The notes beneath the pieces were generated by a model, which saw nothing but the letters and a program-made list of their open reading frames with translations, was not told where the DNA came from and did not search any database. DNA of 64,000 bases, taken from Pseudomonadota bacterium. GTDB lineage: Bacteria > Pseudomonadota > Alphaproteobacteria > Rhodobacterales > Rhodobacteraceae. Below are positions 33,858 to 52,192 of this stretch, one piece after another. The position numbers and the translations under genes are program-made. Each line of letters starts with the position of its first letter. The stretch's first letter is position 1. The DNA lies in NCBI GenBank assembly GCA_039178805.1, contig JBCDFC010000001.1, positions 534-64,533 on the forward strand, written 5' to 3'.

Positions 33858-34508
33858 ATGACAAGGATCTCCGATACGATGTCTCCATCGAAATCGCGCC
33901 TGGTCATCGCGGATAGCCATGAGGTCGTTCGCGAAGGAATCGCGGCCCGCCTGCAGTCTTGCTCGGTCGAATTGGTCGGTCAGGCAGCGGACGGATACTC
34001 TACCATCAAGATCTGCCGGCAACTGGCGCCGGATCTGCTCATCATGGATCTCTCACTCACGCGTCCATCGGGTACGGAGACTTTGGCGAAGCTCCGGGCG
34101 AGCCTTCCGGACATGCGGATCGTCGTGTTGTCGTCGGAGGCGAAGACGGCGGACGCGTTCACCGTCCTTGGGCACGGGGCGATCGGGTTCATGCCGAAAC
34201 AAGCCAAGGGATCCGACTTCGTGAACGCAGTTCGCGCCGCGATTGCTGGATACACCTGTGTGCCAAGTGCCTATCTCGCGGAATTCGTCACCTTCCGGCG
34301 CAATCTGAGCCGCACCGGGAATTCTTACGGCTTGTCTCGGCGCGAGTTGGAGGTGCTTGAAGCGTGCGCCTCGGGCCAGCGAACCAAGGAGGTCGCCGAG
34401 CGGTTCAATATTAGCGTGCGCACGGTCGAGACGCATCGCAACGCGATCTACCGCAAAACCTCCTGCCACGATCTGAAGGAACTATACCGCAACCTTCAGA
34501 CCGAGTGA
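33858..34508 (+). CDS. NarL/FixJ-family response regulator (REC + LuxR HTH), orphan, likely T3SS regulator
   Basis: VIADSHEVVREG, LIMDLSL, GFMPK and LSRRELEVL...ISVRTVETHR; start 33858 or 33879. Confidence 0.9.
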   Translation: MTRISDTMSPSKSRLVIADSHEVVREGIAARLQSCSVELVGQAADGYSTIKICRQLAPDLLIMDLSLTRPSGTETLAKLRASLPDMRIVVLSSEAKTADAFTVLGHGAIGFMPKQAKGSDFVNAVRAAIAGYTCVPSAYLAEFVTFRRNLSRTGNSYGLSRRELEVLEACASGQRTKEVAERFNISVRTVETHRNAIYRKTSCHDLKELYRNLQTE

Positions 34509-34651
34509 GGCGTGCACGACAGCTGCGAGGCGGATCTACGCATCCATCCACGCGGGCTTGACGTATCGACAGTAGGTAGACGCTTTCGCTACAACCCAAG
34601 GTAAGGTGGGTGATCGATGGGGATGTGCCCGCCGGAGAGGTGGGTGATGGT

Positions 34652-35356
34652 ATGGCGTCGATTTCCGCAAGGCCGACCGAAACGGTCGATCCAGCCCTAC
34701 ATGACGGATCGATCGACCCTTCTCAGATTCCGAGCCACTGGCTAGTGGCTGGCGACCTGGAGCCCGAGCCGTTGCCGGCGGCGGACGACGACCTCTCCGC
34801 GGCGCATCATCTGATCAATCAGCGGTTGCAGCGCCTGCTGGGTGATGATGCCACGACCGAAGTGGTGGGGCACGTTCTCGACGGCGCCTATCGCGGTGAG
34901 CGCGACGCGCTTGTGCAATCGACGCTCGACTCAGCACTTGTCGGTGTCGCCGAGCGCGGGCTGGTCTTCGATGTCGTACCGGCCGAGACGGGGATGCCGG
35001 AGATGGCGGAGATCGGCGAGACGCTCCTTCCAGACGGCGTCGACGCGGCCATCGTGTTTCCCACCGATGCGGACCCCGCGATCATCGTGGCTGCCGATCT
35101 GGGTCTGCGTGACGTGCTGCTCGCGGTGCAGGACGGTGCGGTCAACGTGCTCTTCAACGAGATTGAGCTGTTGGGGATTGGGCCCCTCCGTCCCTCCGCG
35201 GTGAGTGAGCTTCGCACATTGATCGACGAGGGCTCGTTGCCGCAGGCGAACCCGAACGATGTCCACGCGCTCGATGACGGTGTGACGGGCGAAGATCGCG
35301 GGCCGCTGGTGAGCGTTGCCTATCGCGGCCGCATTCTCGAGGGCGAGATGCTCTGA
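34652..35356 (+). CDS. Acidic hypothetical protein upstream of sctJ (candidate T3SS substrate)
   Basis: Long ORF with host-like codons, D/E-rich, no signal peptide; alternative start 34610. Confidence 0.7.
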   Translation: MASISARPTETVDPALHDGSIDPSQIPSHWLVAGDLEPEPLPAADDDLSAAHHLINQRLQRLLGDDATTEVVGHVLDGAYRGERDALVQSTLDSALVGVAERGLVFDVVPAETGMPEMAEIGETLLPDGVDAAIVFPTDADPAIIVAADLGLRDVLLAVQDGAVNVLFNEIELLGIGPLRPSAVSELRTLIDEGSLPQANPNDVHALDDGVTGEDRGPLVSVAYRGRILEGEML

Positions 35357-35529
35357 TCGCGCGCCGCGCTCAGCACTGCGCCGGCCTCATCGCGCTACCG
35401 GGAACCCTACGTGGAACGGAGCCGGTTGCGTAGGGAAGCACTATCGAACTCCTTCGACAGATACTCATTCTGGGCACGTGATCGAGGCCCGGACCTTTTC
35501 CGGGCGGTAGTCCCGGTGAGGTTACACAG

Positions 35530-36318
35530 ATGGTCGGTTCGATCCTCGGGCGTGGTTCGATGCTCGGTACAGGACTCGCACTCGTCTTGTTGGTCGCCGC
35601 ATGCAAGCAGGACGTTTACAGCGGCCTAGACGAGCATCAGGTGAACGAAATGGTCGCCGTTCTCGCGTCGCACGGCATCGAAGCCCGCCGCGACCGCGAC
35701 AAGGACGGGACATTCGTACTGCAGGTTTCGGACGCGGAAGTCGCACCGGCGATCACGCTACTGCGCGAGGCCGGCCTGCCGCGCGTGACCTTCGAGACGC
35801 TCGGCGAGGTGTTCAGCGCAGGCGGGGTGTTCGGTACGCCGTTCGAACAGCATGCACGCTACGTCCACGCGATGAATCAGGAGCTGTCAGCCACGATCAC
35901 CGCGATCGACGGCATCCGCTTTGCCAAGGTCCTGGTCACAGCGCCTCAGAAAGGGCGGTTCGACCAGGAGGCGCCACCCGCCACCGCATCTGTCGCGATC
36001 CACTACGAGAGGGGCCGGGACGTCCGCTCTCAGCTTTCCTCAATCAAGATGCTGGTCGCCCATGCGCTGCCGAACCTCGACTACGACGACGTGGCCGTTG
36101 CGATCTTTGAGGCAGGCGGTCCGGTCGTTGCGGAGCGGCTCGAACAGCCGCTGGCAAAGCCCGGCTCGCCGCTACCTGCGCGGGCAGGCATCCTCGTGCC
36201 GTCGGGACCGGAGACTCGCGCGTGGCTGCAGGCAAACCGTATCGAGCTCATCGTCGGGTTCTTCGCCCTCTCCATCGTACTCGCCTTCCTGTGGATCGTT
36301 CGGAAGGTGTCGCCGTGA
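35530..36318 (+). CDS. sctJ: T3SS inner-membrane ring lipoprotein
   Basis: Lipobox VAAC, YSGLDEHQVNEMVAVL, GLPR and QELSATI; C-terminal TM helix. Confidence 0.93.
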   Translation: MVGSILGRGSMLGTGLALVLLVAACKQDVYSGLDEHQVNEMVAVLASHGIEARRDRDKDGTFVLQVSDAEVAPAITLLREAGLPRVTFETLGEVFSAGGVFGTPFEQHARYVHAMNQELSATITAIDGIRFAKVLVTAPQKGRFDQEAPPATASVAIHYERGRDVRSQLSSIKMLVAHALPNLDYDDVAVAIFEAGGPVVAERLEQPLAKPGSPLPARAGILVPSGPETRAWLQANRIELIVGFFALSIVLAFLWIVRKVSP

Positions 36319-36890
36319 TGTTGCCGCCAGTGCATGCGGAGTGGCTGGAGCGTTGGGCGCCTGAGCTGCGCGACGCAGACCTGCGCGCGGCCTTGATCGG
36401 GTCGGGGCGCTTCCACGGCCGGGTTGAAGCAGCACTGGCGGCTGATTTCCTGTCGCTGCCAGCGGAGAACGCGCCCGAGGAGGCCGACGACGGTCACGTC
36501 GCGCAGATCCTGGACGGTGTGGACGACGAGGCCGTGCTTAGGGCCGGCCTTGGATGGTGTGCGCCGGCGCTTGCTACGTCGCTGAAACCCTTGGACGCCT
36601 TCCCAGAGATTGCGGCGACACGCGGACGGTTGCAGCTTTTGGTGAGCCAACGCGATCATGAGGCGGCCGGCGAAGTCGTCGCGCCGCGCGATGCTGAGGA
36701 GATCAAGCGCGAGGGCCGTGCCTGCCTCGCCGCATGGTTTCGAACGCATCCACGCGGTGCTGCGGCGCGGGCCAGGCTCCGTCTCGCACCAGCTCAGACC
36801 GCGGCGACATCCGAGACCCACCTGATCCCGATCCGTGCGGAGATCTACGAGGCCGCGCTCGCCAGCCTCGGATCGGAGGCCGCAGCATGA
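36318..36890 (+). CDS. Putative SctK/NolU-position sorting-platform linker
   Basis: Lies between sctJ and sctL, overlapping both; contains a P..H.EW motif. Confidence 0.6.
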   Translation: MLPPVHAEWLERWAPELRDADLRAALIGSGRFHGRVEAALAADFLSLPAENAPEEADDGHVAQILDGVDDEAVLRAGLGWCAPALATSLKPLDAFPEIAATRGRLQLLVSQRDHEAAGEVVAPRDAEEIKREGRACLAAWFRTHPRGAAARARLRLAPAQTAATSETHLIPIRAEIYEAALASLGSEAAA

Positions 36891-37537
36891 ACGCCCCGCT
36901 CGTCGCCGTCAGGATCGATGCAGCGGAGGCCGAGCGGCGGATTGCGGCGAGCCGCGCTGTCGGGCGCGATGCGGATGCCGCGATCGATGAGGCACGGGCA
37001 ATCGTCGAGACCGCTCGACGTGAGGCGCGGTCGGTTGCTGCCATGGCGCGGGCCCACGAAGTGGAGCGCGGGAAGGCGCTTCATGCGATCGCGGAGGACA
37101 CCGTCGACCGTTATCTCGACACCAAGAAAGTCGAAGCGGCGGCCGAGGCCGCGGCGCGCCTGCTCCGAGATGCAGGACGGATCCGGGCAGAGTTCGACGC
37201 GCTCACTCCGTGGCTCACGGATTTCCTGCGTGACGCGGTCACTAGGCTCGTCGGCACGCTCGACGACGACGAGCTGCTGTCGAGGCTCGTGGCCGAGGGT
37301 TTGGCGAGCCAGAAGGATGCACGACAGGTCGTGATCCGGGTCGCACCGAAGGATATCGAGCGTCTTGAGGCTGCGCGCAGCGTGCATCCGTTGCGCTTTG
37401 CCGGTGTAGCGGAGATCCGCGCCGATGGGTGTCTCAAACCGGGTGCTGTGCTCCTCGAAGGACCGGGCGGGGTGCTCGAGGCAGGGCTCGAGACCCAGCT
37501 CGACATCCTTTGCCGAGAGCTTGAGGCGCTGGAATGA
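36887..37537 (+). CDS. sctL: T3SS stator (FliH/SctL family)
   Basis: Ala/Glu coiled coil, then VIRVAPKD...LKPGAVLLE.PGGVLEAGLETQL; precedes the ATPase. Confidence 0.85.
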   Translation: MNAPLVAVRIDAAEAERRIAASRAVGRDADAAIDEARAIVETARREARSVAAMARAHEVERGKALHAIAEDTVDRYLDTKKVEAAAEAAARLLRDAGRIRAEFDALTPWLTDFLRDAVTRLVGTLDDDELLSRLVAEGLASQKDARQVVIRVAPKDIERLEAARSVHPLRFAGVAEIRADGCLKPGAVLLEGPGGVLEAGLETQLDILCRELEALE

Positions 37538-38850
37538 TCGCCGACACAAGGCTTAAGGCGGCCCGTGCCGCGATCAGGCGCGCGCCGCTCCGTCCGACGA
37601 CGGGCCGTGTTGCGGGGCTCAAAGGTCCTGTCATCCGCGCTCGACTGGCTGGCGCTCGGGTCGGCGGGTTGTGCTGGATCGACTGCGGCGCCCAGCCACC
37701 CCTTCGTGCCGAGGTGGTTGGGGTCGATGGTCCGCATGCTGTGATGAGCCCGTTCGGGACGACCGAAGGGCTTACGGAAGGGGCTGCGGTTCGGCAGTCG
37801 AACGGTGGGCTGTCGATTGCGGCTGGGCCCGGTCTTCTCGGCCGGATCGTCGATGCCTTCGGCGTTCCCGTGGATGGGCAGGGGCCGTTGGCTGGGCAGA
37901 CTTGGCGCGCACCCATCCGGCGGGGTGCGCCCGAGGCAGTGGCGCGCCCGCTGGTCGAGGCTGCGCTGAACACAGGCATTCGCGCAATCGACGCGATGGC
38001 GACGCTCGGCCGCGGCCAGCGCCTGGCGATCTTCGGCCCGCCGGGTACGGGCAAGTCCTCGCTCTTGGCCTCGATCGCGCGCGGAGCTGCGGCGGATGTC
38101 ATCGTGATCGGCCTTGTCGGCGAGCGCGGGCGCGAAGTGCGCGAGTTCACGGCGAAGGAACTTCCAGCCGAGCTGCGTGCTCGGGTGGTTTGCGTCGCGG
38201 CGACCTCGGACAGACCCGCAAGCGAGCGGATCCTCTGTGCGCAGAGCGCCACGGCGATCGCTGAGTTCTTCCGGGATCGCGGGAACTCGGTGCTCCTGAT
38301 GATCGACAGTATCACGCGCACGGCGCGGGCGCTTCGCGAAGTGGGGCTCGCAGCGGGTGAAGCACCCACGAGGCGAGGCTATCCGGCTTCGGTCTATCCG
38401 GCGCTTCCTGCGATCATCGAACGAGCGGGTCGCACGGAAAAAGGCGATATCACAGCGCTCTACACTGTGCTTGTTGAGGACGAAGGCGAAGGCGATCCGA
38501 TTGCCGATGAGATGCGCAGCCTCACGGACGGTCACCTGACGCTGTCGCGCAAGCTGGCCGAGAGCGGCCACTGGCCGGCGATCGACGTGCTCGACAGCCT
38601 AAGCCGGCTGATGGCCACCGTCGCGCCCCGCGAACAGATCGAGGCGGCTGCGTTGGCACGGCGCCACCTGGCCAAGTACCGCGACATCGAGCTGCTCCTG
38701 CAGGTCGGTCAATATGCCGAGGGCGTCGACCGGGAGGCGGATGCGGCGATCAAGGCGAAACCGGCGCTCGACCGCTTTCTGCGTCAGAACCCTGCGGAGC
38801 GTGTCGATCCGGCTGCGATGCGAGCCGCACTGCGTGAGGCGGTTCGATGA
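37534..38850 (+). CDS. sctN: T3SS ATPase
   Basis: Walker A GPPGTGKS, GERGREVREF, DSITR, GYPASV and WPAIDVLDSLSR. Confidence 0.95.
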   Translation: MIADTRLKAARAAIRRAPLRPTTGRVAGLKGPVIRARLAGARVGGLCWIDCGAQPPLRAEVVGVDGPHAVMSPFGTTEGLTEGAAVRQSNGGLSIAAGPGLLGRIVDAFGVPVDGQGPLAGQTWRAPIRRGAPEAVARPLVEAALNTGIRAIDAMATLGRGQRLAIFGPPGTGKSSLLASIARGAAADVIVIGLVGERGREVREFTAKELPAELRARVVCVAATSDRPASERILCAQSATAIAEFFRDRGNSVLLMIDSITRTARALREVGLAAGEAPTRRGYPASVYPALPAIIERAGRTEKGDITALYTVLVEDEGEGDPIADEMRSLTDGHLTLSRKLAESGHWPAIDVLDSLSRLMATVAPREQIEAAALARRHLAKYRDIELLLQVGQYAEGVDREADAAIKAKPALDRFLRQNPAERVDPAAMRAALREAVR

Positions 38851-39341
38851 GCCGCCGCGCTGCTGAGACACTGAGGCTTCTTCATCGACTGCGGGAAGCG
38901 GCGCGGGACGGTGCGCGGGCGCGGCTTGCCCTCGCCAATCGTGAGGTGCGTCGCCTGAAGGCCGAGACGGAGGCCAAGGAGGTGCGGCACGCGCATCTCG
39001 CGACGGTTGCGGAGCAGTATATGCCGCAAGCAATCCGTGACCTCGGCCCGACCCGGGATGGCGCCTCGGTCTATGCGTCGCTGGCGGTCGGGGCTTCTGA
39101 AACCGCTCGTGTCGCGCGCGTGGCGGCGGGCGATCTGAACGCCATGCGCAAGCGCCAGACCGAGGCTGCGGCGGGCGTCGATCTGGCTGCTTCTGCGTAT
39201 GTCGGATCGGTCGCTGAGGCGGCGGCCATCGGGCGACGATCGGCGGAAGTCGAAGGCGCAATGACAAAGCGTGCGGCACGCCGCCAAGACGATGAAGCCG
39301 TCGATACCTGGTCAGCGCGGCGCAGTGGTGGCGGGAACTGA
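38847..39341 (+). CDS. sctO: Putative stalk protein
   Basis: Coiled-coil protein of about 160 aa directly after sctN. Confidence 0.65.
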   Translation: MSRRAAETLRLLHRLREAARDGARARLALANREVRRLKAETEAKEVRHAHLATVAEQYMPQAIRDLGPTRDGASVYASLAVGASETARVARVAAGDLNAMRKRQTEAAAGVDLAASAYVGSVAEAAAIGRRSAEVEGAMTKRAARRQDDEAVDTWSARRSGGGN

Positions 39342-39344
39342 TCG

Positions 39345-40466
39345 ATGCGCGACCTAACCGATGAGATCCCATCGCCGGAAGGGTCGGTTGAGGCGCTCGA
39401 CATCGCGGCTCTGATCGCGGGTCTGCCTGACGGCACCTGTCCACCGGATACCACGGTGCAGCGAGGGCAGATCGCGCTTGCACCACAGATAGCCGTGTCG
39501 GTGGAACTCAGCAGCGCTGGTGAGCTGCGAGACGCGGAACCGAACGATCTCGCGCTGGCGGCTTCCGCCGGCGATCTGGCGGCGCATATGCGGCTGCCTC
39601 GCGATCTCGTCGGTGCGCTGGCGCGGCGCTTCGGTTTCTCCATCGAGGTTGCCGCGCAGTCCGAGAGCACGCTTGCGATGGTGACGGAGTACTTGCTGGC
39701 CACCGCGGCCCAACCGCTTGAGAGGGCTCTCAATGGTGATCTGAGGCTGATCCCTACGGCCGACGAGCCCACCGGCGACGAGATGTTTTCGCTTGTCGTG
39801 ACGGTGGGGGATGAGCGTCACCAGGCGATGATGAGCGTGAGTGGAGAGACCGCGCGCAAGATCCGTCATCTCTTCCCAGCGCCTGTCGAACAGGCCCGGG
39901 TGCAGCTGTCCGACGCGATGGCGATCCCGGTCGCGGTGCAGAGCCCAGGGTTTGATCTCTGTGCCCGCGATCTTGATGCGTTTTGTCCCGGCGACGTCCT
40001 GCTCCTCGATCCGCGTTGGCGGCCTGAGGCCGATCTTGCGCTTGTCTCGGGCGCTCAGCGCCTCGGAACGGTCGAGCGAGCTGGAGCCGGACGCTACACC
40101 CTCGCCGCCGTGGCGGACCCTACGACGCCCAAGCCCGACGAAAGGACCGAGACCATGGCCACCCCCGCAACACTCGAAACGACGAGCGGCAAACCCCAGC
40201 AACCGTCGCCTGCCAAGTTGGCCGCACCGGCCGGCTCCGCGGTTCAATCGACGCTCGACACGCTGACCGTCACCGTGAGCGTTGAGGTTGATCGGACTGA
40301 GATGACGCTCGCGGATCTCCGCAGCCTCGCCGTGGGGTCGGTTCTGGAGTTCGAGGGCGATGGCCTCGAACGCGTCGCGATTTTGGCCAATGGCACGCCG
40401 TTGGCGAAGGGTGAACTGGTTCGCGTCGGCGATCGTACCGGCGTCCGCCTCGTGGCGCTCGACTGA
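39345..40466 (+). CDS. sctQ: C-ring / sorting-platform protein
   Basis: C-terminal SpoA domain (LADLRSLAVGSV...GELVRVGDRTGVRL). Confidence 0.88.
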   Translation: MRDLTDEIPSPEGSVEALDIAALIAGLPDGTCPPDTTVQRGQIALAPQIAVSVELSSAGELRDAEPNDLALAASAGDLAAHMRLPRDLVGALARRFGFSIEVAAQSESTLAMVTEYLLATAAQPLERALNGDLRLIPTADEPTGDEMFSLVVTVGDERHQAMMSVSGETARKIRHLFPAPVEQARVQLSDAMAIPVAVQSPGFDLCARDLDAFCPGDVLLLDPRWRPEADLALVSGAQRLGTVERAGAGRYTLAAVADPTTPKPDERTETMATPATLETTSGKPQQPSPAKLAAPAGSAVQSTLDTLTVTVSVEVDRTEMTLADLRSLAVGSVLEFEGDGLERVAILANGTPLAKGELVRVGDRTGVRLVALD

Positions 40467-40484: not shown

Positions 40485-41129
40485 ATGGAGAACCTTGCCA
40501 CACCGCTCGTGCTCGGCTTCATCGCCGGGTTCTTCCTGCTTGCGGTGCTGAGCCTTACCGCTTTCGTTAAAATCTCGGTCGTGCTGATGGTGATCCGGCA
40601 GGGTCTCGGGCTGCAACAGGTGCCCTCGAACGTCATCCTGCTCGCGCTTGCCCTTTTCCTTTCGATTTTCATCTCCGCCCCGATCTTCAGTGCGTCCCTC
40701 AACGCCGTTGCCGAAAGCGGTCTGGAACTCGACACGGCGCAGAGCCTCTTCGATCTCTGGAACGTGGCCGCGGCACCCTTCCAAAGCTTCATGGTGCAAA
40801 AGATCGACCCGGCCCATGCGGAGCTTTTCGTGGCCTCCGCCGACCGGCTGTGGACGGGATCCGGGCTTACCGCTTCGCTCGACGAGTTCGCGATCCAGGT
40901 GCCGGCCTTCATGATTTCGGAGCTGACCGAGGCCTTTCGGATCGGCTTCCTGCTCTATCTCCCTTTCATCGCGATCGATCTCGCGGTGACCGGCATCCTG
41001 ATGGCGCTCGGCATGCAGATGGTGCAGCCCAACATCATCGCGGTGCCGTTCAAGCTTCTGCTCTTCGTCTTCGTCGATGGCTGGGCGCGCCTCGCAGAGG
41101 GGCTCCTCGCCGGGTATTCGGCGGTCTGA
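40485..41129 (+). CDS. sctR: Export apparatus protein R
   Basis: TAFVKISVVL, GLQQVPSN, PAFMISEL..AFRIGF and PFKLLLFVFVDGW. Confidence 0.95.
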   Translation: MENLATPLVLGFIAGFFLLAVLSLTAFVKISVVLMVIRQGLGLQQVPSNVILLALALFLSIFISAPIFSASLNAVAESGLELDTAQSLFDLWNVAAAPFQSFMVQKIDPAHAELFVASADRLWTGSGLTASLDEFAIQVPAFMISELTEAFRIGFLLYLPFIAIDLAVTGILMALGMQMVQPNIIAVPFKLLLFVFVDGWARLAEGLLAGYSAV

Positions 41130-41131
41130 TC

Positions 41132-41401
41132 ATGGAGGGGACGTCCTATCCCGGAGTTCTGGTGGGCTTCATGGCCGATGTGGCGCTGTTGGCCGGCGCG
41201 CCGCTCGCGGTTGCGACGGTCATCGGGCTCATCGTCTCGGTCTTGCAGGCACTGACCCAGATCCAGGATCAGACACTCTCGCAAACCATCAAGATCACGG
41301 CCATCGTCGCGACGCTCTTCTTCTTCGGTGCGGTCCTGACGGCGCCGCTCATCAACTCCTCGCGGATGGTCTTCGACAACTTCCCCGAGATGGTGCGCTG
41401 A
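41132..41401 (+). CDS. sctS: Export apparatus protein S
   Basis: QALTQIQDQTL signature; real start is ATG 41132. Confidence 0.92.
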   Translation: MEGTSYPGVLVGFMADVALLAGAPLAVATVIGLIVSVLQALTQIQDQTLSQTIKITAIVATLFFFGAVLTAPLINSSRMVFDNFPEMVR

Positions 41402-41413: not shown

Positions 41414-42247
41414 ATGGAGCGGTTGTTCGAAATGATCGAGCGTACGGGTGCTGAGGGGATCTACGGCCTCATCGTCTTCGGTGCGGCGCGTCCGCTGGGG
41501 CTCATCTTCGGCTTCCAGGCCTTTGCTTGGGCGATCGGGCAGGCCGTCCTGCTGCGGACCGGCATCGCAATCGCGATCGGACTGCCAACGCTCGTGATCA
41601 ACCTGCCCGAGCTCGCGCCCATCGTAGCGGAGGCGTCGCCTCTCACCTCCGCACTGATCGCACCGCGAGAGTTTGCAATCGGTTTTGGTCTCGGTCTGCT
41701 CGCCTCCCTGCCATTTCTCGCGTTGCAGTATGCGGGTGCTGTGACCGATAGCTTCCGCGGCGAAAGCGATGGTGGCCAGTCCGATCCGGCAGGGGGCGGC
41801 CAATTGCAGACCTTCTCGGCCCTTTATGTGGTCGTCGGCTTCGCGGTGTTCTTCTCGCTCGGCGGTCTCTGGCAGCTCGTCGGGCTTCTCTATCAGAGCT
41901 ATGCAATCTGGCCGATCGAGGCGGCGTTGCCGACGCTCGCCAACGGTGGTGCGAGCCTTGCGATTGCGCTTCTCGGGGAGACACTCGCCACCTCGGTGCG
42001 GATCGCGTTGCCGCTGCTGGGGCTCCTCTTCGTTGTGGAGATCGCGGTCGCAGCGGCGGCGCGTCTGGGACGGCGGACGGGCTTCTACGAACTCGCATTC
42101 CCGGCGAAGAACCTGGCGACGGTCCTTGTGCTTCCCCTTGTCGGTTGGTTCATTGCCAGTACGGCTGCAACCCTAACGCTCGAAGCCTTCGTCGCGGGCG
42201 ATCTCCTCGCGCGCATCGTGCCGGCCCCGCAAGGGGAGGGGCCTTGA
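41414..42247 (+). CDS. sctT: Export apparatus protein T
   Basis: Hydrophobic; REFAIGFGLG...AGAVTDSFRG and SYAIWP; lies between sctS and sctU. Confidence 0.9.
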   Translation: MERLFEMIERTGAEGIYGLIVFGAARPLGLIFGFQAFAWAIGQAVLLRTGIAIAIGLPTLVINLPELAPIVAEASPLTSALIAPREFAIGFGLGLLASLPFLALQYAGAVTDSFRGESDGGQSDPAGGGQLQTFSALYVVVGFAVFFSLGGLWQLVGLLYQSYAIWPIEAALPTLANGGASLAIALLGETLATSVRIALPLLGLLFVVEIAVAAAARLGRRTGFYELAFPAKNLATVLVLPLVGWFIASTAATLTLEAFVAGDLLARIVPAPQGEGP

Positions 42248-43631: not shown

Positions 43632-45815
43632 TTAGGCAGGAAGGGCTGCCTGCTCCCTGGCGGCCTTGCGCTTCGCGGCAAGCGTACGCGGCGCATCTGC
43701 CGTGGCCTCGGCCTGCACGGGGCGTCGTCCTGCTGCAGGAGGCTCGACAGCAGGGCCCTTCAGCAGGCCAAGCGGGAAGGTCGGGATCTCGCTCGCAAGT
43801 TCATGGGTTGCCAGCACTGGCAGATGGATTTCATGCAGCGCGAGGTAGTTGCGAAGCCGCCGGCGCAGATCGGCAGCGCAGACGATGGCAGGCAGCCGGG
43901 TGGAGCTCTCTTGCTCGGCGACGATCTCGCGCATCTGCTTGAGAACTGCGTCGTTCACCTGTGGCGGCAGGACCAGGCCATCCTCGGGCAGCCCGGACGG
44001 TCGGCGCGGCTCCTGCAGCGTGCGGCGGATCGCGTTCTCAAGGCTCGGATCGAGCAGCATGACGCCGAGCACGCCTTCGCTTCCAGCGATCCGGTGGCAG
44101 AGTTGGCGCTTCATCGAACCGCGCAGGCACTCAGCCAGCAGGGCCACTTTCGGGGTTTCGAGGCTGTGGAGCCAGTAGTGCAATGCGCCGATCAAGGGCG
44201 TGAGCGGACGCACCGGCACGCCGTCCTCAACGAGGTAACGCAGCAGGCGATGAAGTGCGGGGCGTGCAATCTTCTCCTCGACCTCGCGCATCGCCGAGGG
44301 TTCTGCTGCATGCATCGCCTGAAGGAGCTCCAAGAAGAGCTCGATCGAGAAGAGTGTGCCGAGATTGCGTTCGTAGATGCGGAAACCGAGCTGAGCGATG
44401 GCGTCTTCGAGCGAAAGCACATCGTAGCCAAGATTGGCGAGGGCTGGTGCGTCATCCGTCGCGGCCCACACGCCTTTCAGATCGATCCAATCGAGTGTCT
44501 CTGCCGCCATGCCGCTGCGTTGCGATGCGATTTGGACGAGTGTTGCGTCGCCTCTGACGGGCACGATCCCGGGGCGGAGCTGATCGCGGAAGACCGGCAC
44601 TTCGTCGAGTTCGACACAGACGGCATCGGCCCCGAAGCGCCCGGAGATCTCGGCGGCGATCCGGGGGAAACGAACGCCCCGTGCTGCGTGAAGTTGCCCG
44701 ACCCTCTGTGCGATCCGGTCTTCGAGATCGGCGATGTTGATGAGGCTTGCGGCATCGGCGCCCAAGACGATGCGGATACGATTGCTCGCCGGCGTATCGG
44801 CGGCGGCTGCCGCCTCACGCTCAGCCTCGGCTCGTGCGGTTTCGGCTTCTGCCTCGACCGCCGAACGCACGATGGCCGCGCGCAGGAGCAGCATCGCGAT
44901 GAAGAGTGCTCCCGCGATCCCGGCGAAGACGACGAGCGGAAATCCCGGGATGAAGCCCATGGCGAGCACCACGCAGGCGGCGATGCCGGGGACGCGCGGG
45001 TCGGAGACGAGTTCCTTAAAGATGTCGCTGCCAAGGTCGCCGTTCTCGAGATTGGCGACGCGCGTGACGATGACGCCCGCGCAGAGCGACATGAGGAGCG
45101 CAGGGATCTGCGCGACCAAACCGTCACCGACCGTCAGCAGTGAGAACACGCTCACGGCTTGGAGAAAACCAAGGCCGTGTAACGTCATACCGACGGCAAC
45201 GCCGCCGAGAAGATTGATGCAGATGATGATCAGCCCGGCGATTGCATCACCCTTCACGAACTTCATCGCGCCGTCCATCGCTCCGAAGAACTGGCTGTCG
45301 CGGTCGAGCCGACGGCGCCGCAGGCTCGCCTCGTCGGCATCGATGGTGCCGGCGCGAAGCTCAGCGTCGATGGCCATTTGTTTGCCCGGCATCGCGTCGA
45401 GTGCGAAGCGTGCGCTTACTTCGGCAACACGCTCCGCGCCCTTCGTCACCACCAGAAACTGCACCACGGTGATGATGAGGAAGATCACGAGCCCGATGCC
45501 GATCGAACCTGCGACCACGAACTCTCCGAAGGTGGAGATGATTTCGCCGGCATCCGCCTCGGTCAGGATCAGCCGTGTCGTGCCGATCGAAAGCGCGAGG
45601 CGAAAGGCGGTGCCGATCAGGATGACGGACGGAAATGTCGAGAAATCGGAGGGGTTGCGAAGGTAGAGCGCGACCATCAGCAACAGCACCGACAGCGACA
45701 TGTTGGCCGCGAGGAGCACGTCGATCACATCCTCGCTGAGCGGTACGACCATCAATGTCAGCGTGGCGATGACGATGGCGACCAGGATCAGGTCCTTGCG
45801 CATCTCCGTCTCCAT
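43632..45815 (-). CDS. sctV: Major export gate protein
   Basis: KGAERVAEVSARFALDAMPGKQMAIDA, FFGAMDGAMKFVKGDAIAG and GDGLVAQIP. Confidence 0.96.
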   Translation of the reverse strand: METEMRKDLILVAIVIATLTLMVVPLSEDVIDVLLAANMSLSVLLLMVALYLRNPSDFSTFPSVILIGTAFRLALSIGTTRLILTEADAGEIISTFGEFVVAGSIGIGLVIFLIITVVQFLVVTKGAERVAEVSARFALDAMPGKQMAIDAELRAGTIDADEASLRRRRLDRDSQFFGAMDGAMKFVKGDAIAGLIIICINLLGGVAVGMTLHGLGFLQAVSVFSLLTVGDGLVAQIPALLMSLCAGVIVTRVANLENGDLGSDIFKELVSDPRVPGIAACVVLAMGFIPGFPLVVFAGIAGALFIAMLLLRAAIVRSAVEAEAETARAEAEREAAAAADTPASNRIRIVLGADAASLINIADLEDRIAQRVGQLHAARGVRFPRIAAEISGRFGADAVCVELDEVPVFRDQLRPGIVPVRGDATLVQIASQRSGMAAETLDWIDLKGVWAATDDAPALANLGYDVLSLEDAIAQLGFRIYERNLGTLFSIELFLELLQAMHAAEPSAMREVEEKIARPALHRLLRYLVEDGVPVRPLTPLIGALHYWLHSLETPKVALLAECLRGSMKRQLCHRIAGSEGVLGVMLLDPSLENAIRRTLQEPRRPSGLPEDGLVLPPQVNDAVLKQMREIVAEQESSTRLPAIVCAADLRRRLRNYLALHEIHLPVLATHELASEIPTFPLGLLKGPAVEPPAAGRRPVQAEATADAPRTLAAKRKAAREQAALPA

Positions 45816-45843
45816 GGTTCGCGGTCTTGGTCTTCGAAATGGC

Positions 45844-45877: not shown

Positions 45878-45912
45878 TCTCCGGTCGCAGCCGGCAGACA
45901 CTCTGTCCTCGA

Positions 45913-46140
45913 TTAGTTCTGGACCTTGCCCGATTGGTCCTTCGCGACCTTCTCGGGCGCTGTGTCCTCCTGGAACGTCATGTTCAGGTTCATCACATGG
46001 AGGTACAGCGCCTCGGCACGGGCGGTCAGGCCGGCGAGCCCGCCGCTGTCGCCATTGCCGAACTCAGAGTTGTTGCCGAGATTGTCCGTGTTGACGTTCG
46101 TGGTCGCCTGGGCGGCGCCCGCCACATCACCAAAGCTCAT
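45913..46140 (-). CDS. Putative needle/pilus subunit (NopA/HrpA/SctF-like), 75 aa
   Basis: Strong SD (gagagga); Gly/Asn-rich N-terminus and helical C-terminus; upstream of sctV and followed by a hairpin. Confidence 0.55.
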   Translation of the reverse strand: MSFGDVAGAAQATTNVNTDNLGNNSEFGNGDSGGLAGLTARAEALYLHVMNLNMTFQEDTAPEKVAKDQSGKVQN

Positions 46141-46282
46141 CTTTCCATTCCTCTCGATTTGGCCCGGGTCGGGCTCCAAAGGTCTGCCGCGAGCGGCATC
46201 TCCACGGACGCGTCGCGTCCCTGTGCTGGTGTCCGGTGGGGTCTTCGTCCGGACGGCCAGTTCGGTCGTGCCAGGCGCGCGA

Positions 46283-47008
46283 TCATTGCGTTCCAGGCTC
46301 GGTGTTTTCGCCCGCGCCGGCCGTGGTGGCCGGGAGGGGCGTGTTGGGTATCGGCAGTGCCTCGACCGCGAGCGAGGTGCCGCGCCGGACCCGCATCGTT
46401 GGCACGACTGCAGCGGGCGGTCGCGCGGCGGCGAGCGGTGGTATGCTCTCGACGATCGCTTCGGCTATCGCGACCATGCGCGGCGGTCCGCTGAAGGTAA
46501 GCGCGCTGCCCCCTGCCGCTTCGCGGACGTCATCAGGGCCGAAGCGGAGACCGGCCGACGCGATGGCCGCAAGGGCGCGATCCTTGGAGATGTCGGTCAG
46601 GCGCACGAGGCGCAGCGTCGTCTCGGCCTTGGCGGAGACGTAGACTGAGCCGCCATAGGTGAAGAGATCGAGGTCATGCGCGGCTGCGAGGTCGCCGAGT
46701 GCGTCGATCGCGGCCCCGCGAAGGCGATAGCGGCGAACCCTGCCGCGCACGTCGTTGCTGACCCGGATGCGCAACCCCGTGTCGCGCCCAACCATCGCCA
46801 GGACGCCGCCGATGCGCTGATCGACGACCACATAGTCGATGCGCTGGCGCATCGCGTTGTCGATGGCTCTCTTACTGGGTCCCGGTACAACGGTCCTTTC
46901 GGCAGATATGGCGTCGAAGAGGGCAGGGTGCTCAGCCAGCGCAGCGCCGGCCGAGATGGCAGCGCCGAGAGCGACCACTATCGAGATCTTCGTCGGTCTT
47001 TGCGCCAT
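46283..47008 (-). CDS. Stand-alone secretin N-domain protein (RhcC1/NolW-like)
   Basis: Signal peptide; YVVVDQ...IRVSNDVRGRVR...YGGSVYVS...SGPPRMV; no C-terminal secretin barrel. Confidence 0.82.
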   Translation of the reverse strand: MAQRPTKISIVVALGAAISAGAALAEHPALFDAISAERTVVPGPSKRAIDNAMRQRIDYVVVDQRIGGVLAMVGRDTGLRIRVSNDVRGRVRRYRLRGAAIDALGDLAAAHDLDLFTYGGSVYVSAKAETTLRLVRLTDISKDRALAAIASAGLRFGPDDVREAAGGSALTFSGPPRMVAIAEAIVESIPPLAAARPPAAVVPTMRVRRGTSLAVEALPIPNTPLPATTAGAGENTEPGTQ

Positions 47009-47106
47009 TGCAGTCTGCGCCCTGTCTCATCCTGTCTTGAATTCGAGACTAGGCGGGCCTCCACAGGGCTGCCATCAGCGCATTTTCGTGGCGGACATAG
47101 GTGAGC

Positions 47107-47134
47107 CTGCGCAGTTCTCTGCGTAGTTACGCAG
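47107..47134. promoter_or_regulatory. Candidate regulator box in the divergent T3SS promoter
   Basis: ctgcgcagttctctgcgtagttacgcag, inside the inverted repeat gagcctgcg...cgcaggctc; similar to sites at 50444 and 60387. Confidence 0.45.
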
Positions 47135-47233
47135 GCTCGCAGGCCAGTTGCTGAGGACCTTCAGGGGTCGATGTGCTGGGGTCGGTTCACGGCGCTGCCT
47201 AAAGTTGCAGAAGACGCAGCGCTGGAGGTTCGC

Positions 47234-47425
47234 ATGAACGAAGTCACCGGCACACCGGGCATTGGTGCAGGGCTCGAACTCGACCAAGGGCTTTCAGGCG
47301 ATCAGGTTGAGTTCCTGATGGACAGCGTCCTATTCGCGTCGCTCGACGCCGCGGTCTTCGGCCCGATGCGCAACGAGAAGATCGGCGAAGACACCGGCGA
47401 CGACTCGGGCAAGGTCTACTCCTGA
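47234..47425 (+). CDS. Small acidic T3SS-associated protein, 63 aa
   Basis: SD ggagg before ATG 47234; first gene of the sctI-sctD operon. Confidence 0.65.
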   Translation: MNEVTGTPGIGAGLELDQGLSGDQVEFLMDSVLFASLDAAVFGPMRNEKIGEDTGDDSGKVYS

Positions 47426-47465
47426 CGCGTGCGAGGCAGGTTTTGCGGGATTTGACGAGGGCACG

Positions 47466-47891
47466 ATGAACGATGAAACGAACCCGGGTGCTATCGGCGC
47501 GATTGAGCCGATAGCACCGGCCGCAGAGCCGCCGTCTGTTTCTTCAACGCATCGGTTAGACGACTTCGATGCGGGTGTGCAGGACGTCATCGCGGCCGAC
47601 AATCTGAACTTCGCGGCTGAAAGTGCCATGTCAGGGATCCTGACGCTGCCTGGCGCGGCGCTCGACATGACGACGGTCAAAGACGAGCTGACCGGAGGCG
47701 CTGGCGACGATGTGAGCAGAGCGAAGACCGAGCTTCTTGCTAACCCAGAAGTCGAGAGCGATCAGAACGGTCAGGACGCGCTCATGGCGCGCTATGAGAA
47801 GCTCTACTCTGAGATGACGGTGTTCCAGGTGGCCTGGTCGATCGCGCGCCGGCTGCAACAGGACACGTCGCAGCTCCTGCGCGGGCAGTAG
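47466..47891 (+). CDS. Putative inner rod protein (SctI/HrpB2/NolB-like)
   Basis: Low-complexity N-terminus; C-terminal helix ending TSQLLRGQ. Confidence 0.6.
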   Translation: MNDETNPGAIGAIEPIAPAAEPPSVSSTHRLDDFDAGVQDVIAADNLNFAAESAMSGILTLPGAALDMTTVKDELTGGAGDDVSRAKTELLANPEVESDQNGQDALMARYEKLYSEMTVFQVAWSIARRLQQDTSQLLRGQ

Positions 47892-47906
47892 GCAGGGCGT
47901 CGCCGG

Positions 47907-48827
47907 ATGCAGACCGCGCCATTGAGTTTCCTGCGCAGCCGCGCCTCGCGGATCGCCAGCAGGCTTTCCTCGCCCTCGACGGCGCTCGATTGCATCGAGG
48001 TACAGGTCGACTCGGGCGCGATGTCGGGCTTACGGTCGCGACTTACAGGCTCGCGGATCACGCTCGGCGGGAACGAGACCAACGACGTGCTGCTCCTCGA
48101 TGTCGAGAACCGAGATGCGGGCGTCGAGGTCACATCGCGTCGCAGCATCGTGGGCCCGCTCGTTCACATCGCCCCGCTGGGCGGAGCATCGGTCACCTGC
48201 GGCGGCACGGAAGTTGCGTCCACGGGTTTGTGGGAGCGGCTGCCCTGCCGGTTCGCGGTCGATGGCGTGCCGGTCACGTTGGACGCGTCTCGGGATCAAC
48301 GCGTGTTCTCTCCTTATGGTTTGGCGGCACTCGGCGCCGCAGCGGCAGCGGTGGCGCTGGTCCTGATGCCCGAGCCGAAGAGCGCCATGGTGGTGACGCA
48401 TGCTGGCGTTGCGGCAGAGACGGCCGCCACGCCGCTGATACAACTCGGCGCGGTCGAGCTCGAGGGGCTCATCGCCGAGGCGGGGCTCTCCGACTTCTTG
48501 AGCGTGGTCCGCGGCTCCGGTGGCACGGTCGATGTGACCGGCAATGTTCCAACCGCCTGGATGCCCGCTTGGCGCGAGCTGCGGATGGACTGGGACAGCC
48601 GCGCCGACATCCCCACGGTCACCAGCCGCGTATCAGAGCTCAAGGGCATCGACAGGCTGCCGCCCATCGCTGCGGTGCGGCTTGGACCCGAGCCATACAT
48701 TCTGCTCGCCAGCGGAGAGCAGGTGCGCACCGGCGACATTCTGACCGAAGGCTGGAAAGTCGAGCGGATCCAGCAGTCAGACTTCAGCCTCATCCGGAAC
48801 CGCGAACGCATCGAAATAGCGTTCTGA
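47907..48827 (+). CDS. sctD: SctD-like inner-ring protein
   Basis: FHA-like N-terminus (ITLGGNETNDVLLLD), one TM helix, periplasmic ring domain, C-terminal PYILLASGEQVRTGD...GWKVERI. Confidence 0.8.
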   Translation: MQTAPLSFLRSRASRIASRLSSPSTALDCIEVQVDSGAMSGLRSRLTGSRITLGGNETNDVLLLDVENRDAGVEVTSRRSIVGPLVHIAPLGGASVTCGGTEVASTGLWERLPCRFAVDGVPVTLDASRDQRVFSPYGLAALGAAAAAVALVLMPEPKSAMVVTHAGVAAETAATPLIQLGAVELEGLIAEAGLSDFLSVVRGSGGTVDVTGNVPTAWMPAWRELRMDWDSRADIPTVTSRVSELKGIDRLPPIAAVRLGPEPYILLASGEQVRTGDILTEGWKVERIQQSDFSLIRNRERIEIAF

Positions 48828-48863
48828 TCAATCGTCGGGGCGTAGCGCAGAAGAGAGATCGAC

Positions 48864-49274
48864 ATGTCCGACAATTACATCTCGCAGACAGGACCGAGCG
48901 GCACGCAGTTCGACGCGGGGCCGGTCGAGTTCGATCCTCGGATGTATGTTCCAGACGAGGTGGAGCAGGGCGTTCCTGACCTCTACGCGACCGTTCTCAA
49001 CACGGTGCTGCAACCGCCGAAGCTGCAGTTCAACGATCAGCTCAGTGACGAGGTCGCGTTCTTCGCCCCCGAACTAGAAAGCCTTCGTGGCACGTCGATC
49101 AACGATCTGGCCTGGCTCGTCTCCACGATGACGGTCGACCGCCAGGCCGAGGTGCTGGCCTCAGACGATCCGACCGCCCAGCGTGGTTGGATGAACTTGG
49201 TCGAGACGATGAAGATGCTCGAAGCGCTCTTCACGGCGAGGACGCGCGGTGGTGTGGACGCAGCGCAAGGCTGA
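48864..49274 (+). CDS. Putative SctX-like protein
   Basis: 136 aa with a C-terminal amphipathic helix, directly before a TPR protein; positional inference. Confidence 0.4.
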   Translation: MSDNYISQTGPSGTQFDAGPVEFDPRMYVPDEVEQGVPDLYATVLNTVLQPPKLQFNDQLSDEVAFFAPELESLRGTSINDLAWLVSTMTVDRQAEVLASDDPTAQRGWMNLVETMKMLEALFTARTRGGVDAAQG

Positions 49275-49289
49275 CGCAGGGACACGCGT

Positions 49290-49649
49290 ATGGGAGTTGG
49301 AACGGAGATCGATCTTGAGAACGGTGGGTTCGCGCCGGTCGGCCAAGAGGCAGGCAGCGGGCACCAGCCCTCCGAACGGGACGCGACCGATGTGCGCCTG
49401 CTCTGCGGTTTGGCTGCGGCGCACGCTCTCTTTGGTCGATACGAGAGCGCGGCCTCTCTTCTCGACTTCGCCGCCTGGATCGATCGAGGCGACCGCCGCG
49501 TCGACGAGCTGAAGGCGATGGTGGAGATGCGGCGCGGACGGCTCGACCTGTCGCTCGAAGCGATCCGCCGTTTGCGCGCCAAGGGCCATGCGCTACCGCG
49601 GCAACTTCGGCAGGTGGAGACGAGGGCAGCGCTGCGGGGGATCGAGTGA
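49290..49649 (+). CDS. TPR chaperone (SctY/YscY-like)
   Basis: LLCGLAAAHALFGRYESAASLL TPR-like helix pair. Confidence 0.55.
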   Translation: MGVGTEIDLENGGFAPVGQEAGSGHQPSERDATDVRLLCGLAAAHALFGRYESAASLLDFAAWIDRGDRRVDELKAMVEMRRGRLDLSLEAIRRLRAKGHALPRQLRQVETRAALRGIE

Positions 49650-49661
49650 TCTTTGGTGGCT

Positions 49662-50372
49662 TCAGCTTCGCGGTGGCTCACCGATGCGTCGCGGCACGTC
49701 CGAATTGATCGTCTCGTTAATGCTGCGCGTCGTGCCATCAAGGATGTTTACGAACAGCCAATGCTCATAGACCGTTTCGGCTCGCAGCCGAAGATGACTG
49801 CGCAGAGCATCGAGGTCGACCAGGACGCCGTTGTTCTCAGCAACGCCCGTGATCGTCGTCGTGTTCACATCGACGACTTCCTCAATGACCTCCTCGGTCG
49901 TCAGGTCTTCGTCTACGAGCAGCACCAGCTCGTCACCGGCAATCACGAGATCGGTGCCTTCGCTTTCGCTCAGATACACCTCTGCCAGCGTGCCCTCCGC
50001 GGTCTGGATGGTATCGACGGTGCCCGCATCGACCGCGATCACCTCCACTTCGAAAGCGTCGGCGTCGTCCAAATCGTCCAGGGTCTGCTCGATCGCCGCC
50101 GCCTCGGAGGGTGAGCGCTCTTCAGGTTCTTGCCCGTCGATCAGGGTGCCGAGCTCGTCGCGTCCCTCTTCGCTGTCGAGAAGCGTGTCGACATCCTCGA
50201 AGATCTCGTCGCCTACGATCTCGATCAGATCGTCCCCACCCACCTCGACCGAACCATCGTCCACCGGTAGCTCGTTCGACGTACCAGGTTGCGCGTTCGA
50301 TGCGATCGCCACATCGATCTGCTCGGCCACGGCGATGCTCTCGAGAAGGCTGAGCGAACGCAGATCGGTCAT
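49662..50372 (-). CDS. Extremely acidic hypothetical protein
   Basis: D/E-dominated ORF with host-like codons, no signal peptide; start ATG 50372. Confidence 0.7.
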   Translation of the reverse strand: MTDLRSLSLLESIAVAEQIDVAIASNAQPGTSNELPVDDGSVEVGGDDLIEIVGDEIFEDVDTLLDSEEGRDELGTLIDGQEPEERSPSEAAAIEQTLDDLDDADAFEVEVIAVDAGTVDTIQTAEGTLAEVYLSESEGTDLVIAGDELVLLVDEDLTTEEVIEEVVDVNTTTITGVAENNGVLVDLDALRSHLRLRAETVYEHWLFVNILDGTTRSINETINSDVPRRIGEPPRS

Positions 50373-50815
50373 GCGTGTTCCCCAGAATGCGGCTATCCGC
50401 ACAGCATCCCTACACATGTGCCTTGGGGAAGCCATTCGCAAAGCCACGCAGTTTTACCGGTAGTCCCTGAGCTTGTGCTTACCTGTTGCAAGACTTGGTG
50501 CCCCCGTCTGGGTGCGGTCTGGGCGTCGATCTTGAGTGTAGTTCGCACGTCGCCTGAGACCGCCTGAGGCCATGCGCGAGGCTCAAATCGAGCGGGGGAG
50601 CCGATCTCGGTTCAGGTTCCGCGGGGTGCGGGACGCGTCGCCCCAAGTTACTCAACGACACCCATCGCCAAAGCTCCCGCTTTCGTGAGCCGCTCAGAGG
50701 TGCGGTCCAAATCAGCGAGCTGCTGTGCGCTACGACACATTTGGATCCCTCGACGAAAACTACCTGCGGTTGATCGATGCCCAGTAAGGGCGATAATTTT
50801 TTGGGAACCAAGCAA

Positions 50816-52192
50816 ATGAAAATCACTGTTGTCGAAGCAGACGAGACAAAACTTATAGAAAAACCCGCGTCGACCGTTGTCGAGATACTGCGCGCGGTGC
50901 GAGAGGCTACAGCCGACACCGAAGCGCATGAGGCCGCCGCGGCGATCACTCTCCTCGCCGACCTGTTGGCCGCGCTTGGCGACGATGCATTGGTCAGCGA
51001 GCAAGCGTTGCTCGATGCGCTGATGACCTCCCCAGAAGTCGACGCAATCCTGGCAGAAGCGGACCTCAACGCCGAACGTCTCTTGGAGATGATCGCTGTG
51101 TACCCCGCGGTGCGGACGCCCGGCGACGGCCCAAGTGGCTTAGGTGATCCTAGGTTGATGGATGGAAACGCCGAGGAGGATTTGACCTTCACGCCAGAGG
51201 AAGTGGCTGAGTACGACCAGCAGTATGAAATTCACAGGTGGCTCGCCGGATATGGTGAGAAACCCGCTTTCGTGTCGAGCAAGTTATCACGTGAAGACGC
51301 GCTATTGCTCTTTGACTTCGAGGATACAGCTGCAGCGCGTAAGTCATTCTTAAGTGAGTACGGTGCTCATGATGACAAAGGTAACCCTTTGACACCATCT
51401 GATGGGAATGAAGAACCAGGTTCGACGAGTGCCGACAAAGGTTGGTTTGCCGGTTTCTGGGACGCAATCGCAGGAGCCCTCGGAAGCTTCGTCGACGCCG
51501 TTGTTCATGCTGTTGAGGTGGTGGTGGATGTTGCGGTCTCTTTTGCAGGGGCAGTTGCTGACTTCTTCGTTGCCACTTGGAATTGGCTTACAGGTTCGCA
51601 TGACGAGGCTGGCGCGGAAAAAGGCTCTCCCAGTGACAGTGAAACGGACGGCGCCGAGGGCGATGACGGCGGCGATGGCGATGAGGCTTCTGGGGACGAG
51701 ACCGATCCAGAAGATGATGAGCCGGACGATGCCGGGGATGAAGAGGGCGAAGGAGATAAGGAAAGTCTGACGGAGCCCGACCAGGGAGGTGGTTCTGCGG
51801 CCGGCTACGAGACTTTCGTCGCCAAGCGTGACCGTTCGGACGACAATCATGGCGGCACATCTCAACCTGGATCCGACGATCAGGATAACGACTCCGACAC
51901 GGTTCCTGAGGACGACCCGCTGCAGCCATTGATCAATCCGGGTTCGCCGGGCGTCGATGGGGGCCCGCACGACCCGGACAGCGCGTTTAAGTTCTTCGAT
52001 CCCGAAGATCTGTTGGGCCTTAGTCCTCTGACGCAGCCAGATCCGAACGATGTACCCGGCAATCCCGACCTGCCGCCGGACGACAATCGCGAGGGTTGGC
52101 GGTTCGTCGAGATGCCTGGACCGGAGCTGGGAACTGGAGAGGGCTCGTTCGCACAAGATGCCTTCGGCAAGATCGACAACTTCGACTTCTGA
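50816..52192 (+). CDS. Acidic low-complexity protein with a central amphipathic segment (candidate secreted substrate)
   Basis: GWFAGFWDAIAGALGSFVDAVVHAVEVVVDVAVSFAGAVADFFVATWNWL followed by a D/G/P-rich tail. Confidence 0.75.
   Translation: MKITVVEADETKLIEKPASTVVEILRAVREATADTEAHEAAAAITLLADLLAALGDDALVSEQALLDALMTSPEVDAILAEADLNAERLLEMIAVYPAVRTPGDGPSGLGDPRLMDGNAEEDLTFTPEEVAEYDQQYEIHRWLAGYGEKPAFVSSKLSREDALLLFDFEDTAAARKSFLSEYGAHDDKGNPLTPSDGNEEPGSTSADKGWFAGFWDAIAGALGSFVDAVVHAVEVVVDVAVSFAGAVADFFVATWNWLTGSHDEAGAEKGSPSDSETDGAEGDDGGDGDEASGDETDPEDDEPDDAGDEEGEGDKESLTEPDQGGGSAAGYETFVAKRDRSDDNHGGTSQPGSDDQDNDSDTVPEDDPLQPLINPGSPGVDGGPHDPDSAFKFFDPEDLLGLSPLTQPDPNDVPGNPDLPPDDNREGWRFVEMPGPELGTGEGSFAQDAFGKIDNFDF

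Follow-up and report, generated by a model that had tools for sequence, protein, structure and literature searches.

We analysed a 64,000-nt stretch of contig JBCDFC010000001.1 (referred to here as the window) from the genome assembly GCA_039178805.1 (G000; completeness 85.8%), which carries an Rhc-family type III secretion system (T3SS) locus. Four DNA runs, all from one marine-metagenome study, are listed as carrying this stretch, and no RNA run is. Below, G-numbers denote the genomes searched, L-numbers the fetched loci and C-numbers the contigs of G000. As the core genes sctJ, N, Q, R, S, T, U and V are present without flagellar rod or ring genes, the system is a non-flagellar T3SS; the flagellar genes of G000 lie on other contigs.

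The locus begins on the forward strand with the gene of a NarL/LuxR-type response regulator (33879..34508), likely its activator, which adjoins the locus in most members of the clade described below and is 82% identical in the related genome G541. On the same strand follow sctJ (35530..36318; TIGR02544 above cut-off), the NolU-like sctK (36318..36890), sctL (36887..37537), sctN (37534..38850), encoding an ATPase with intact Walker A and B motifs, an sctO-like gene (38847..39341), sctQ (39345..40466), sctR (40485..41129), sctS (41132..41401), sctT (41414..42247) and sctU (42248..43285). The reverse strand carries sctV (43632..45815), a 75-aa pilin-like gene of NopA/HrpA-type architecture (45913..46140) and an RhcC1-like secretin N-fragment (46283..47008) that has a signal peptide and no channel domain. 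Beyond a divergent promoter, the forward strand encodes an acidic conserved protein of 63 aa (47234..47425), placed like the small Rhc-II gene before sctI, and then an sctI/NopB-like gene (47466..47891), the Y4yQ-type sctD (47907..48827; PF23893, TIGR02500), an sctX-like gene (48864..49274) and an sctY-like gene for a tetratricopeptide repeat protein (49290..49649). All of these genes are uninterrupted and none has an in-frame stop. A one-base difference at 42238, seen in three of the four runs, was considered as a sign of a pseudogene and rejected, as it falls in the last codons of sctT.

An original prediction, made from the sequence without database searches, had named most of these genes. 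Pfam and NCBIfam matches confirmed the secretin N-fragment and sctD, J, L, N, Q, R, S, T, U and V, and sctK was identified through profile matches to NolU (E 4e-5) and to the Rhc-II SctK (E 2e-9). The rest of the list fared less well: sctI and sctX gave no significant profile match and are assigned by position (sctI also by its conserved C-terminus), and the profile matches of sctO (E 0.12-0.13) and sctY (NCBIfam, E 0.012) are weak. The inventory was also incomplete, as the 75-aa gene and the 63-aa gene at 47234 had been overlooked. It was right that sctO (end 39341) directly abuts sctQ (start 39345), that the secretin N-domain is a stand-alone gene, which is a mark of the Rhc family, and that the locus has no recognisable SctP, SctW or translocator: 20 queries for SctP, SctW, translocators, chaperones and RhcC2 gave no match in window 30001-64000 at E<=0.05.

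The Rhc affinity proposed at the same time was borne out by a tree built from seven genes of 33 loci (2212 columns, with FastTree local values as supports). The window falls in an 11-locus clade (support 1.0), whose sister is the Rhc-III of R. phaseoli (1.0), and the two together lie inside Rhc (0.98, or 0.994 without flagella). A tree of 24 loci gave the same sister pair at 0.99. The window clade is thus the sister of Rhc-III and not a member of it. An SctN-based search for related loci yielded 80 loci of distant ATPases (41-50% identity), which were not used. SctJ scored above cut-off in 15 of 301 family genomes, and SctU profile matches at E<=1e-60 were found in 12 of 401 order genomes, seven of them (including G000) within the clade. 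No SctU profile match was obtained for two near-complete genomes from the genus of G000, which lack the locus. One genome, G499, holds three Rhc-family loci (L175-L178, L183-L184), two of them inside the clade. Source records label homologous proteins as Sulfitobacter, Aestuariibius and Salipiger, all of which are Rhodobacterales genera. G541 is syntenic with the window from the luxR regulator to the gene at 49662, and in comparison with it the ratio of nonsynonymous to synonymous substitution rates (dN/dS) was 0.06-0.49 in 18 of 19 genes, dS being saturated in the 19th. The locus is intact and under purifying selection.

Our literature search found no paper describing this clade, and we take the system to be a novel form within the Rhc family. 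The roseobacter genomes in PMC2702493 are listed there without a T3SS, and the SctN tree in PMC7643967 includes Rhodobacterales sequences and may already place members of the clade.

SctU of the window lacks the NPTH autocleavage motif, and so do its 11 close database homologues. The idea that this is a peculiarity of the window locus was rejected, since the loss is Rhc-wide: within the tree set, Asn-Pro is absent from all 23 Rhc SctU sequences that span the region, while NP(T/I)H is kept in all eight non-Rhc ones. The Rhc-III SctU of R. phaseoli R650 stops before the motif region. Two plasmid-borne Rhc-family T3SSs from outside rhizobia (L157, Klebsiella aerogenes; L152, Paracoccus sanguinis) are also without NPTH. 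We found no paper reporting an Rhc-wide loss; most subscription journals lay outside the search, so its novelty is unproven. In Salmonella, the N258A mutant secretes neither translocases nor effectors (PMC4620466). Counted among the 23 is RhcU (L145:20001-21038) of the functional Rhc-I system of Sinorhizobium fredii NGR234, which has no SctP and no annotated SctW, and carries the gene in the sctO position directly before sctQ. This system lacks both NPTH and SctP, yet it forms NopA pili of 6-8 nm (PMC3973906), and therefore a design without the switch works. According to the same paper, SctP was not found in any rhizobial T3SS. We infer a joint loss of ruler, gatekeeper and cleavage in the Rhc family as a whole, whose machines work nonetheless.

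The absence of SctP, the adjacency of sctO and sctQ and the absence of a translocator are thus ordinary traits of Rhc systems, injecting ones included. The original prediction had taken such absences as a sign of a non-injecting machine, and on this point it does not hold: the functional, plant-injecting Rhc-I of NGR234 likewise lacks SctP and NPTH and has the gene in the sctO position next to sctQ, so these traits give no argument for a machine of this kind, and RhcIa clusters go without nopX. Its suggestion of a single-mode exporter, on the other hand, is strengthened by the SctU without NPTH.

What would such a machine build, and what would it deliver? The 75-aa gene lies directly upstream of sctV, holds the same position in eight other clade loci, has a dN/dS of 0.13 and matches by profile a small Rhc-II protein (E 0.002). 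Because of its size, position, variable N-terminus and conserved C-terminal part, we predict that it encodes a Hrp/Nop-type pilin. As to translocation, a neighbour of the G463 locus has a hydrophobic C-terminal segment and resembles a protein of Phyllobacterium that carries the annotation 'HrpK domain' (38.5% over 97% of 730 aa, E 1e-114); a neighbour in G378, with a hydrophobic hairpin, shares its C-terminal half with the G463 protein (24%, E 6e-14). In G052, a 4082-aa protein encoded beside the T3SS (L124:16-12264) has AvrB-like, Kdo-kinase-like and amidohydrolase matches. Injection is plausible for the clade and possible for G000, where a NopX/HrpF translocator of the RhcIb type was not found for the window locus.

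A possible, though rather unlikely, alternative is that the machine crosses both membranes without injecting: proteins of an adhesin-, lectin- or bacteriocin-like kind would be released to the cell surface or the medium, and the branch of the window and G541 would have lost the translocator. It draws on the translocator searches, which were blank in G000 (outside the Ysc loci), G541, G052 and the closed genome G186, and on some of the neighbouring proteins: the 2452-aa protein adjacent to the T3SS in G541 and its homologue on C3 contain a B-lectin / lectin-like bacteriocin stretch, and a neighbour in G137 has collagen and EF-hand repeats. However, RhcIa clusters without nopX, which their authors called enigmatic, still translocate NopE variants (PMC7643967), HrpK-like and enzyme-domain neighbours occur within the same clade, and the protein encoded at 50816 in the window itself has a hydrophobic segment. 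Delivery onto or into eukaryotic neighbours is the reading that we prefer.

We found no outer-membrane channel in the window locus. The separate RhcC1-type gene encodes N-domains only, and a profile of eight such fragments matches MxiD and InvG in their N-domains (E 8e-7 to 3e-5). A T3SS-owned RhcC2 was found neither in G000 (at its 85.8% completeness) nor in nine other clade genomes, some of whose loci were partly fetched. A Tad secretin is present in all 10 genomes, and in six of the nine others (closed G186, G052, G025, G137, G541 and G463) the sole secretin stands in Tad context (CpaC). RhcC2 is described as Tad-derived, with RhcC1 proposed as a linker to SctD (PMC3459982); Rhc-III is likewise without rhcC2 (PMC3574062, PMC3973906), and how it passes the outer membrane has been called a mystery (PMC4500985). 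Because of the Tad origin of RhcC2, the proposed linker role of RhcC1 and the rhcC2-less Rhc-III, we prefer the explanation that the Tad CpaC is likely borrowed in trans as the outer-membrane channel.

The lack of a cognate secretin channel in the 10 genomes searched would also suit a machine that does not pass the outer membrane at all, as argued for the secretin-less Myxococcales systems (PMC3459982); it would export to the periplasm or form a structure that is periplasmic or pierces the envelope, capped by RhcC1. We regard this as improbable, given that the neighbours (pilin-like, HrpK-like or very large) suit targets outside the cell and that a Tad secretin is available in every one of these genomes.

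G000 also has other secretion machinery. It contains three SctJ genes, and its two further T3SSs, one on C7 and one on C11 and C58 with a chaperone-translocator-like set on C23, are both Ysc-like: they carry SctW, an SctP-type gene, SycD and SseC-family proteins. The marks of the Ysc family (SctW, SctP, SycD and SctE/B in the locus; NPTH in SctU), which both of these systems possess, are all missing from the window locus. The four secretins of G000 lie beside the two Ysc-like systems, in a type II secretion system (T2SS) locus and in the Tad locus, and none is a separate RhcC2. One could suppose that the window locus serves as an auxiliary export gate and obtains its secretin, gatekeeper and translocon from the Ysc-like systems in the same genome. 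We consider this very improbable, and for the clade it is already largely refuted: G541, G052, G186 and G463 keep the locus with the Tad secretin only, and SctW and SseC gave matches in none of these four. Canonical SctW, SctP and SctE genes, of a kind which the original prediction held would count against it, do occur elsewhere in G000, but they belong to the two Ysc-like systems.

The Ysc-like systems deserve a few remarks of their own. Both have a GspD-like secretin gene beside sctU (C7:39316-41331, C58:35-1801); the two products are 55% identical to each other and 35-46% identical to the T2SS secretin of C46. No SctC-type secretin was found, and these are possibly another recruitment of a T2SS secretin. 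Their clusters also contain small genes that resemble, by eye, those of anti-sigma-factor/antagonist proteins (C7:12340-12753, 29344-29661; C58:10848-11180; C11:33663-34109). Altogether, G000 combines three non-flagellar T3SSs with flagellar export genes, a T2SS and Tad (C1, C7, C11/C58/C23, C5).

That the locus is the relic of a decaying injectisome is highly improbable: a channel, the switch motif and a translocator have been lost and two near-complete genomes of the same genus lack the locus, but there are no in-frame stops, dN/dS is well below 1 (which means that the locus is not decaying, contrary to one outcome that had been foreseen), the ATPase motifs are intact, the operator is conserved across genera and 11 loci have the same gene set.

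The open reading frames flanking the locus had been described as very acidic orphans without signal peptides and had been proposed to be secreted surface or metal-binding proteins. A crude check agrees on the signal peptides: a hydrophobic stretch at the N-terminus, such as SctJ and the secretin fragment have, is absent from all four. Ranked against 3428 proteins of at least 150 aa, three are rich in Asp and Glu, namely those at 49662 (25%, 99.8th percentile), 50816 (24%, 99.6th) and 34652 (18%, 96.5th); the fourth, at 60534 (13%, 65th percentile), is poor in Lys and Arg and not D/E-rich. The label of orphan suits 50816 (50816..52192, forward strand), for which no homologue was found, and 60534 (60534..62648, forward strand; 704 aa, with a Ser/Pro/Gln-rich N-terminus), which was not found in five clade genomes. 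It does not suit 34652 (34652..35356, forward strand) and 49662 (49662..50372, reverse strand; syntenic in G541), which are paralogues (hhalign 96.8%, E 2.8e-10). The metal-binding proposal found no support, two of the four being copies of a conserved domain without the HExxH motif and one not being acidic. In 50816, hydropathy reveals one hydrophobic/amphipathic segment at about residues 225-270; its link to the T3SS is unproven.

The two paralogues are stand-alone copies of a clade-restricted domain. The family comprises 60 representatives and has no shared Pfam family; its profile matched at least four of the 401 family genomes searched, each encoding one of the SctJ proteins closest to that of the window, and this count is a lower bound because the first-look filter missed some known carriers. 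The domain also makes up the N-terminal portion of large proteins, which in G378 and G499 lie beside the T3SS and which occur in G249 and G027 as well; it had no match in the Rhc loci searched. Its model is confident (pLDDT 90.5), and in structure comparison zincins fill the top ranks (best Z 6.8, within the second-look library only), the predicted fold resembling the Minigluzincin and SprT-like zincins (Z 5.5-6.8). The HExxH zinc motif is present in none of 59 family members, and therefore no peptidase activity is expected. We think that the domain may dock or escort proteins without any catalytic role. In anthrax lethal factor, the N-terminal domain is a dead zincin that serves in docking; the resemblance to it (Z 3.2) is an analogy only. 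The ESM Atlas gave no usable match for 34652 or 49662. A hidden SctW or SctP in either of them was considered and rejected, as there is no sequence match, Pfam is blank and the predicted fold is zincin-like.

The locus has a conserved promoter box. Motif sampling in 35 upstream regions yielded a YTRCGYAR-type motif (score 86.6, vs 45.4 for one shuffle), and a matrix made from the 29 regions of other genomes ranks the window site at 47119 first among all intergenic sites of G000. The box TTGCGTAG (35426..35433) lies 104 bp before sctJ, and three YTRCGYAR boxes occupy the divergent promoter (47107..47134). In intergenic DNA the exact 8-mer has a background frequency of 0.24 per kb, and seven of 141 regions with a match hold at least two. 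Upstream of 60534 there are two boxes 20 bp apart (60387..60414; 147 and 127 bp before the gene), so this gene likely belongs to the regulon of the locus and its product is likely a co-regulated substrate. No exact box precedes 50816. On C3, the gene of a 1956-aa acidic protein (C3:22879-28749), homologous to the lectin-domain giant encoded beside the T3SS in G541, has one box at -84. Near it, on the opposite strand, C3:20231-21826 encodes a 531-aa protein that by eye is a candidate MACPF-like protein, and three YTRCGYAR boxes precede a recombinase-like gene at C50:1565-1692. Two more acidic proteins of the window, a G8/CEMIP/DUF4214 protein (52538-55807, reverse strand) and a signal-peptide protein (55955-58852, forward strand), which faces it together with a two-component pair, have no T3SS box.

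Taken together, we read the locus as an intact Rhc-family T3SS of a marine clade, with export likely in one mode and through a thin pilus, a secretin likely borrowed from Tad and, likely, delivery of large proteins onto or into eukaryotic neighbours; for this reading as a whole we would claim slightly less than an even chance. The gene content, the clade, the selection, the absent parts, the promoter box and the family of the accessory domain are observed; the steps that follow are deduced from them. In this scenario, the NarL-type regulator would bind the YTRCGYAR boxes and switch on the operons and the unlinked cargo genes (60534 and the 1956-aa lectin-domain gene on C3). SctRSTUV, SctJ, SctD and SctQKLNO would assemble normally, the uncleaved SctU needing no switching, and RhcC1 would connect SctD with a channel, the Tad CpaC, provided in trans. 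The 75-aa pilin would polymerise without a ruler, and the HExxH-less zincin-like domain, alone or at the N-terminus of cargo, would act as the docking or escort module. Host entry would depend on a variable, fast-evolving translocator, HrpK-like in some members and unrecognised in G000. A bolder version, which we consider doubtful, holds that a switch-less marine T3SS plugging through RhcC1 into the Tad secretin is the living form of the step before the rhizobial RhcC2 copy, and that the dead-zincin docking domain routes giant cargo, replacing ruler, gatekeeper and cleavage switch.

Several observations weigh against the reading of a delivering, Tad-connected machine. Deep Rhc monophyly received a support of 0.19-0.33 in the 24-locus tree, and function has been shown for Rhc-I only, according to PMC3973906. 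The 75-aa gene does not match NopA significantly (E 4.5). The HrpK label of the G463 neighbour is a record annotation, Pfam HrpK1 does not match it, and neither it nor the G378 protein has a significant direct match to NopX or two other HrpK sets. The blank translocator searches in G000, G541, G052 and G186 used HrpK-like, NolX, HrpK1 and SseC queries, NolX and HrpK1 being run without a positive control. G179, G378 and G499 have extra GspD-like secretins, G000 has three besides the Tad one in an incomplete assembly, and the binding of RhcC1 to CpaC is hypothetical. Finally, the zincin match is modest, and Foldseek against the PDB gave no match for the 34652 domain at E<=0.001.

Among known systems, the clade is closest to the Rhc-III of Rhizobium etli and R. 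phaseoli, known from genes and not from function, which also has rhcC1 without rhcC2 (PMC3574062, PMC3973906, PMC4500985) and no recognised SctP or SctW. Rhc-III differs in its two HrpK-like genes, hrpW and an sctQ directly after sctN (no sctO); the clade differs from it in having sctO, the X/Y-like genes, the zincin-like domain and a regulator of NarL type that has its own box. With Rhc-I (NGR234, Bradyrhizobium) it shares RhcC1, the Y4yQ-type SctD, the NolU-type SctK, an sctO-like gene directly before sctQ, a small pilin or pilin-like gene and the lack of NPTH; Rhc-I differs in its RhcC2 with pilotin, TtsI with tts boxes, NopX (in RhcIb) and a demonstrated function. Rhc-II (NGR234b, R. johnstonii, the Klebsiella plasmid, P. 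syringae T3SS-2) provides the nearest match of the predicted clade pilin and has the same order of rhcC1, small gene and sctI, the same D-X-Y order and no NPTH, but differs in the rhcC2 right after sctV and, often, HrpK. The secretin-less Myxococcales T3SS resembles the clade in its conserved export apparatus and in having neither an outer-membrane channel nor a recognised translocon; it is an unrelated branch according to PMC3459982, was not placed in the present tree, and that paper reports no RhcC1 or SctF for it.

What makes this locus valuable is that its channel is missing, that the whole family has lost the cleavage motif and that it comes with an accessory domain; the absences that had first drawn attention are ordinary. 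The rhcC2-less design of Rhc-III recurs with this clade in a number of marine genera, one closed genome having the Tad secretin as its only one, and channel borrowing, if true, would make the open question of how such machines pass the outer membrane a testable one. The Rhc-wide loss of the SctU motif together with SctP and SctW means that working rhizobial injectisomes dispense with a switch without which Salmonella does not secrete translocators and effectors (PMC4620466), and the accessory domain and the promoter box offer handles for finding the cargo of a so far unstudied marine secretion system.

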